From positions 266,786,001-266,850,000 of the forward strand of contig OZ024743.1 of the NCBI GenBank assembly GCA_964016885.1: a DNA stretch of 64,000 bases. The letters run 5' to 3'. A program made the position numbers and the translations under genes. The DNA comes from Eledone cirrhosa. Taxonomy: Eukaryota. The notes beneath the pieces were generated by a model. The model did no database searches, was not told where the DNA came from, and worked only from the letters and a program-made list of their open reading frames with translations. Position 1 is the stretch's first letter; each line of letters opens with the position of its first letter. Below, piece by piece: positions 13,794 to 14,896 of this stretch.

Positions 13794-14896
13794 TTTACGC
13801 CACAGACCACATCTTAAACAAAAAATCTGAGGCAATTTCGGCTTGTAAACATAAATTGCACAAAGCTTTCCTGTATTACAGCCCCACGTTATACCCTAAC
13901 GGATAGTACGTTCTATACGTGGATATTTTACGTCTCGATGTGGGAGCTAAGTATATGTTTTGTTTATACCTTTACTTATTTGCATAGGTAAGTATATATT
14001 ATCCGTATGTTTTGTGAAGGTACGTATACCTTCTCGTACGTATATTTGATTGTTATGGCGTATAATTTTTTTATATATTCTGGTACATATGGTTCGGCTA
14101 TGTGTATACGGGAGTTTTGCGTTTGTGAGTATGCAGGTTCGTACGTATGTAGGGCGTGTGTATATGTGTACTTCATGTTTTGGTTGACTTACGTCTCGGA
14201 ACTTTACATGTAGGTATGTGTGTGCGCTTGTTATATACGTATTTATTTATTTATATACGTTTATATAATTATTTATTTATTTGTATACACGCTTACACAC
14301 ACACACATATTTATATGTGCGTGGTTTTGTTTACCTATGGTAAGTTTTTGCGTATGCTTGTGTATGTACGTTTCTGTTTGCGTGTATGTATTTATTTGTT
14401 TCTATTACTTCTGTATTGTATTTTATTTACTTTATTCTTAACTCTGAAGCGGAGAATCATTCGGTTTCGTACTTAGAATTTTAGTCTACGACTTCTTCTA
14501 TACCATTTACGTGGTTTTGTCTTTGCGTGCTATTGTACTCCACGCGCCACATATGACGTATTATCTTCGTTTTTTTCGTTCATCGCCAGAGAACGTCTCT
14601 ATGCACCACCTAAGAGAACATTAGTCTACGACCTCTTTTATACCATAAACGTGGTTCTGTCTTTGCGCGTAATTGGTTTTCACCGCTCCTATTAATGACG
14701 TATTATATTCGTTTTTTCCCGTTCTTTGCCAGCGAACGTTTCCAAGAACCAAAGTATCGTCTTCCTGTCTTCCTCCGGTTGCAACGTTTTTTGAAATATC
14801 CACTTCTGCGTTTACAGATTGACTTTGTTAGTTTCAGAAGATCCCGTTAAGGGTGAAAGCAGCGATTCTTTGCTTAAACTTTAATGTTATTTTAAT
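13794..14896 (+). mobile_element. 5'-truncated PLE (last EN codons plus 3' UTR), same family as 20920-23951
   Basis: Encodes ILNKKSEAISACKHKLHKAFLYYSPTLYPNG*, nearly the same as the end of ORF 22162-22458. The UTR is homologous to 21030-22160. Confidence 0.88.
14830..14880 (+). ncRNA. HHR-like motif with U4A core variant
   Basis: agttt-CAGAAGA-tccc-gttaa-gggt-GAAA-gca...tgc-TT-aaact. All three stems form. Confidence 0.65.

Follow-up and report, generated by a model that had tools for sequence, protein, structure and literature searches.

Penelope-like elements (PLEs) of the Hydra clade are marked by a C-terminal GIY-YIG, by DKT, RW(R) and CxCX5C, by a (TA)n target and by a type I hammerhead motif in the pLTR (Craig et al., 2021; PMC8557442), and in the accessible part of File S2 of that study the Hydra rows carry U4 in 26 of 26 cases, U.U at 10.1/11.1 in 14 of 26, U17 in 10 of 26 and C15.2 in 26 of 26. 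PLE hammerheads have been proposed to serve RNA processing or circularisation (PMC4209133), have been suggested to be parasites (accessible text of PMC8557442) and have been described as dispensable in vitro (accessible text of PMC11167929). Both the hammerheads of Hydra PLEs and their in vitro dispensability are already known.

The element studied here, family A, can be set against these systems as far as the accessible parts of the cited papers reach. With the Hydra hammerheads it shares DKT, RW(R), CxCX5C, (TA)n, U10.1.U11.1 and U17, the closest layout being Hydra-1_aJap; the Hydra rows have U4, C15.2-G16.2 and a short stem III, whereas family A has A4, G15.2-C16.2 and a stem III that is longer and not palindromic (PMC8557442). 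The stem II sequences of family A and of its sister, family C, occur nowhere in the accessible part of the PMC8557442 supplement. In Poseidon PAc of Anolis, as in family A, two internal RT starts define the tail and insertion proceeds from uncut RNA (Frangieh et al., 2024; PMC11167929), but the core of PAc is canonical and active with the help of protein and its tail is short, whereas the tail of family A is ~88 nt and its core is altered family-wide. Natural core variants include U10.1.U11.1 and a position-4 change, U4C in a viroid (Perreault et al., 2011; PMC3088659); those are rare single cases, U4A is not among the variants met in the accessible text, and in family A the change is the state of ~25,000 copies. 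Penelope of Drosophila virilis also has a pLTR intron, together with an internal TATA-less promoter (Schostak et al., 2008; PMC2377424), but it starts 46 nt before its intron and has its hammerhead after the intron, whereas in family A the inferred start is the first base of stem I and follows the acceptor by 98 nt. Our literature search, which covered sources other than subscription papers and bioRxiv supplements, found no report of U4A as a family state or of cap-G mapping in PLEs.

Results

A high-copy Hydra-clade element in Eledone cirrhosa

The window analysed is a stretch of 64,000 nucleotides of Eledone cirrhosa (assembly GCA_964016885.1, contig OZ024743.1, positions 266,786,001 to 266,850,000 of the forward strand). 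Judged by its sequence features, family A is a high-copy Hydra-clade PLE. Its single ORF of ~709 aa, present as a full ATG-started frame at 14 of 20 long-ORF loci (chosen for long open frames out of 150 listed), comprises RT together with GIY-YIG at the C terminus, has full-length homologs at 38–44%, and bears DKT (in place of DKG), RWR, and CNCRNRADC, which matches the CxCX5C linker. Pfam returned no match on this ORF, so the RT and GIY-YIG domain calls rest on motifs. Family A copies have a (TA)n target, pLTR tandems, inverted 5' pieces and a tail. Throughout, we number from 14830, the first base of stem I, as +1, which puts the cut site at +47. The window contains the following family A pieces:

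13793..13906 (+): 3' end of the family A ORF, in the 5'-truncated copy that carries the motif at 14830
14881..14897 (+): short 3' tail of that copy, ending at the proximal RT start (~+75, from sampled 3' ends), then the (TA)n target
20921..24047 (-): older, frameshifted copy with RT, GIY-YIG and DKT; motif at 21080-21030 with A4; long tail
5084..5225 (no strand assigned): inverted pair of short copies; the + arm begins G+AGTTT at 5153
52478..52609 (no strand assigned): inverted pair of short copies; the + arm begins G+AGTTT at 52536
50042..50090 (+): decayed short copy, in which A4 persists and stems II and I are broken
25167..25239 (+): short copy with a decayed core, newly found
43733..43790 (-): piece truncated inside stem II, newly found

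The initial annotation had listed six copies of the core in the window, all of which exist; three of them are incomplete, as stem I has no 5' strand in the copy at 5151(-), A9 is missing from that at 5154, and that at 50045 has a broken stem II and lacks the 3' strand of stem I. We added three pieces, at 25167, 43790 (minus) and 52536 (minus). In one pair, the older window copy and a young intact copy from two subfamilies, identity was 145/150 over +1..+150 versus 747/900 upstream; since the conserved stretch spans all of +1..+150, the 5' UTR and tail appear to be held as a whole, and not the hammerhead specifically. Elsewhere in the window, 10005-12024 and 12185-13796 are large inverted and tandem duplications at 96–99% identity, 1640-2323 (+) is what we take, by its motifs, to be a LINE-type RT fragment, and 53294-53710 (-) is presumably, on the same kind of reading, a Tc1/mariner-like transposase fragment.

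Layout and predicted folding of the hammerhead motif

The motif lies where the initial annotation had placed a PLE-family hammerhead with a CUU site, and its parts, by motif reading, are:

14830..14880 (+): type I hammerhead-derived motif in the family A pLTR, with the layout of published Hydra motifs
14830-34/14876-80 (+): stem I
14835-41 (+): core CAGAAGA, with A4 at 14836
14843-45/14851-53 (+): stem II, 3 bp
14855-57 (+): GAA
14858-61/14871-74 (+): stem III, 4-5 bp, non-palindromic
14875 (+): U17 of the CUU site

It also has U10.1.U11.1 and G15.2-C16.2, which the initial annotation had not recorded. The C3-G8 pair, G5, A6, A9, G12, A13, A14, A15.1-U16.1 and H17 of the invariant core are all present, each varying in less than 3% of 89 family A copies. 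By genome pattern counts and sampled cores, the U4 of the CUGA turn is replaced by A, and position 10.1/11.1 is U.U instead of G10.1-C11.1, a tolerated variant. Because U.U and U17 are common in Hydra, and U.U, G15.2-C16.2 and CUU also occur in a family with a canonical core (family E, below), A4 is, on sequence comparison, the single departure among the invariant core bases. The CUU site is thus an ordinary feature, and a reading of U10.1.U11.1 and CUU as signs of decay was dropped since both are normal in Hydra rows and in family E. A permuted hammerhead completed by another CUGANGA strand was also considered for the window copy, and no such strand lies near the motif.

The statement that all three stems form holds only in that they can be drawn. 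ViennaRNA gave stem I a pairing probability below 0.08 in six contexts, and the hammerhead fold (-4.8 to -5.5 kcal/mol) lies 3.3–4.0 kcal/mol above the minimum of -8.8 kcal/mol, with z ~0. A canonical control motif from the same window was likewise without a predicted hammerhead fold, so the folding result says little. In an alternative hairpin A4 pairs with U11.1 and GAAA is buried, with a probability of 0.70 in the isolated 51-mer that drops to <0.01 in contexts of 100 nt or more. No compensatory stem changes were seen among the 89 copies, which are near-identical. Rfam gave no hammerhead match in 14780-14895 at E up to 10, and otherwise returned microsatellite noise and two sub-threshold matches to another PLE family of the window, family B; a metagenome scan with the family A motif gave 0 matches. 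Although the silence of Rfam and the folding z would suit a hammerhead likeness that arose by chance, we regard chance as barely credible, since the motif sits in the pLTR of a Hydra-clade element, is near-identical to the published Hydra layout including the clade-typical U.U, and has a counterpart in family C that keeps GAAAC..GUC at the same place.

A4 is the state of the family

Across the 3.0-Gb genome the A4 pattern has 24,779 matches, whereas the same exact pattern with U4 has 833 (reversed-pattern controls, 0). Among the first 30 U4 loci sampled, 28 were inversion-junction products (25 clean palindromes centred on position 4, 1 such palindrome with an indel, and 2 other inversion junctions) and 2 were true point variants; TTC-A-GAA is a fold-back centre, with U read on the opposite strand. 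A search anchored 3' of the core gave 33,908 matches, the first 100 of which yielded 98 mappable copies (2 were dropped as duplicates or for short flanks). A4 was present in all core-covering copies of this sample (74/74), in all 46 incidental cores and in all 41 cores at the 20 long-ORF loci. A4 is therefore a family state, including beside intact 709-aa ORFs. These counts bear out the earlier view of a fixed core in a successful PLE family, as opposed to individual decay, and the youngest copies do not turn out to be canonical.

TTC-A-GAA, at window position 14836 and at loci L031-L060, is an inversion hot spot with ~800 palindromic joins. On the other strand such joins pass for a canonical core, which would be a trap for motif searches.

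Copy ends point to a probable capped start at the first base of stem I

The 3' ends of sampled copies fall at +74-78 in 17 of 30 and at +161-164 in 12 of 30. At the other end, 7 of the 37 junctions within -10..+51 fall at +1 (six by script, one moved by eye from -4), 6 of these 7 after a G, compared with ~0.5 per position elsewhere; at the cut site there were 0 junctions at +47 and 1 at +46. Genome-wide, G precedes +1 in 1,545 copies, and all 30 sampled were 5' ends with no element sequence upstream; A or C precedes +1 in 1,246 copies, with junctions in 7 of 10 sampled. For the next position, non-A was found in 1,009 copies, with only 19 G in the first 100. The start has this surrounding:

14828..14833 (+): initiator-like TTAGTT, whose A at 14830 is the inferred capped start (+1), from the 5' pile-up and the extra G

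We take TTAGTT to resemble the Inr consensus; no DPE-like motif was seen by eye. From +1 to the ATG of the ORF there are 204 bases, free of ATG. In L1, copying of the cap has been described to leave an untemplated G (accessible text of PMC9341517), and the pile-up at +1 with its extra G is likely what a capped RNA beginning at the first base of stem I would be expected to leave behind.

We regard it as unlikely that the pile-up reflects fold-back microhomology or exonuclease stalling at a structured RNA, with the motif being simply a weak or dead hammerhead. Of the sampled extra G's, 14 of 30 are explainable by a match of at least 6 bases to the element or the inverted arm, and A4 is itself an inversion hot spot; but 16 of 30 are unexplained by such a match, several inverted pairs show the extra G on both arms, family C shows the same signal, again at an initiator-like sequence (TCAGT/TTAGT), and the L1 precedent makes untemplated G a known cap trace. 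None of 44 distinct ORF-bearing copies (49 loci, 5 duplicates) starts at +1, 8 of them running past it, and a pattern in which a non-T +1 start is linked to the 5' UTR on the ORF side had 0 matches in the genome, in a search run with no positive control. The capped RNA is thus visible only through short copies.

We had also considered taking the lack of junctions at the cut site to prove the ribozyme dead, and dropped this since the canonical control family B shows none either (709 matches, by eye); they are likewise unseen in the PAc RNA reads in the accessible part of PMC11167929. A copy that retains the core as well as the tail was made by reading through an uncut site, as holds for any PLE, and this indicates only that cutting is unneeded at the primed end.

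Longer RNAs and the pLTR intron

Upstream of +1, the pLTR contains an intron:

13988..14732 (+): spliceosomal intron, retained in this copy, with a GT donor at 13988 and an AG acceptor

A second donor lies ~30 nt downstream of 13988, and the acceptor ends 98 nt before +1. Precise GT-AG removal, with both donors used, occurs at six genomic loci (L061, L088, L173, L174, L248 and L267), and GT..AG joints are also present in contigs of run X1 (runs X1 and X4 belong to one study, which may itself be the source of the genome and whose kind of sequencing is unrecorded, and the joints are all that was seen there). Longer, upstream-started and sometimes spliced RNAs thus also act as templates.

The intron bears on whether A4 could be fixed since C3-A4-G5 is a 3' splice acceptor, in the manner of the D. 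virilis Penelope intron, which ends at the hammerhead, at helix I (PMC4209133). The TTTCAG context and the presence of an intron in the pLTR would suit this reading, which we nevertheless hold to be very improbable: joining the first donor to either AG of the motif gave 3 pattern matches, none of them a splice junction, and all 6 spliced loci use the acceptor 98 nt upstream of +1.

Sister family C and other hammerhead families

Downstream of the family A copy lies a copy of a related element:

15103..16600 (+): family C copy, with the 3' end of the ORF at 15103-15417, the motif at 16453-16500 and +1 at 16453

The proteins of families A and C share 51–54% identity. In a tree of 16 rows (residues 361-705, the C-terminal half) the two join at 95/92 support, the rows being a chosen set that leaves out the 57% homolog P0001; in a larger first tree they stand in an open fork, and the trees drew on unnamed database proteins and genome fragments only. 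The family C motif begins AGTCCAGAA and has A4, G10.1-C11.1, GAAAC, a GUC site and a 6-bp stem III, while G8 is absent and stem I has only 2 bp. Since A4 and the start site are both shared with family C, they likely predate the split of the two families. A non-T base precedes the family C +1 in 10,152 copies, 45 of the first 100 having G; among 30 sampled, 27 were 5' ends at +1 and 3 had TTCAGT upstream, and by eye 4–5 of 10 extra G's were untemplated. The family C start is also initiator-like (TCAGT/TTAGT). On its sequence, the family C core should be dead, yet the family has spread widely, to more than 10,000 copies.

The family C motif (window 16453-16500, +; L264:3502-3560; L270-L299) contains AGCCGTCG two times, and the resulting 5' hairpin, in which GAAA is buried, would compete with stem III. 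Most sampled family C copies are tiny inverted pairs that start at +1.

Family B (window 52189 + and 50206 -; 709 anchor matches) is Hydra-like and has a canonical hammerhead whose stem II varies across subfamilies. Family E, known from three loci (L302:5661, L300 and L301), combines a canonical core with U.U, G15.2-C16.2, CUU and a palindromic loop III, and no ORF was found near its motif. About ten other families with CUGA motifs were found in 1.12 Mb of loci. C4 cores (CCGAUGA/CCGAAGA) occur in other repeat families (window 37628, -; L006, L027, L028 and L097), and further canonical hammerheads of other PLE-type families lie at window positions 36574, 46936(-), 38219(-), 38726, 39530(-), 40184 and 44253, some of them in nested inverted arrays at 37500-40600.

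Discussion

We consider it probable, from sequence evidence, that family A carries a crippled pLTR hammerhead with A4 and that the reason for its retention is an overlap with a predicted capped Pol II start and with an inferred RT-start region. A capped RNA would begin where stem I begins, with 204 bases free of ATG between this point and the ORF. RT would start internally at two tail sites, cross the uncut U17 site and run off the cap, in a course that we infer from the accessible text of PMC11167929, and this run-off would leave the short G-headed copies. Catalysis would be dispensable, as the templates appear to be used uncut; A4 would have become fixed prior to the divergence of A and C, after which family C would have lost G8 and most of stem I. 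In the accessible text of the Poseidon study, insertion in vitro is unimpaired by hammerhead mutants (PMC11167929).

Speaking against crippling are the retention of G8, G12 and all other invariant bases in family A, the finding that U4C is active enough in a viroid (accessible text of PMC3088659) and the finding that the Poseidon hammerhead cuts only with the element protein (PMC11167929). It is accordingly possible, though we doubt it, that A4 is a tolerated, slow working core in which the enlarged stem III permits a monomer fold and the element's own protein assists cutting at U17. Just one invariant base differs while the catalytic G8 and G12 are kept, U10.1.U11.1 and U17 are normal in Hydra (14 and 10 of 26 rows), U4C is tolerated in vivo and C4 occurs in another family here, and PLE hammerheads are weak or protein-assisted anyway. 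However, in the accessible part of PMC9901934 single and double mutants of the CUGA region, all but the 3:8 swap, have low activity, and mutagenesis of the turn gives no rescue; the A4-U11.1 hairpin that buries GAAA, though prominent in the 51-mer alone, may interfere; and family C, having lost G8 as well as carrying A4, still reached more than 10,000 copies.

The initial annotation had offered a natural core variant and a fold kept for a non-catalytic role, such as recognition by RT, as its two options. The further core loss in family C and the published mutagenesis favour the non-catalytic option; what the data show, however, is an overlap with a likely capped start and not recognition of the fold by RT.

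A bolder extension, which we put forward tentatively and think improbable as a whole, is that in the clade of families A and C the start moved onto the hammerhead's first base and stem III grew to a length that allows monomer folding, so that an active ribozyme would decap its own mRNA and A4 would have been selected as an off-switch; the G-headed copies would then be strong-stop cDNAs, and a repeat present at each end of the RNA would allow RT to jump and thereby assemble pLTRs in the manner of LTR elements. Were this so, a ribozyme would have undergone active silencing and found a second use, as a module for promotion and priming, in two families that number tens of thousands of copies.

Returning to the overlap of a crippled motif with the predicted start, the degree of surprise is moderate, since the hammerhead-less Naiads already show PLEs thriving without a canonical core. 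From DNA alone, the pile-up of extra G's predicts to the base where a PLE would start transcription. Moreover, families A and C, sisters whose copies are intact or abundant and whose core has been eroded step by step, would form a natural series on the role of the hammerhead in PLEs, for which a single-base revertant may serve as control.
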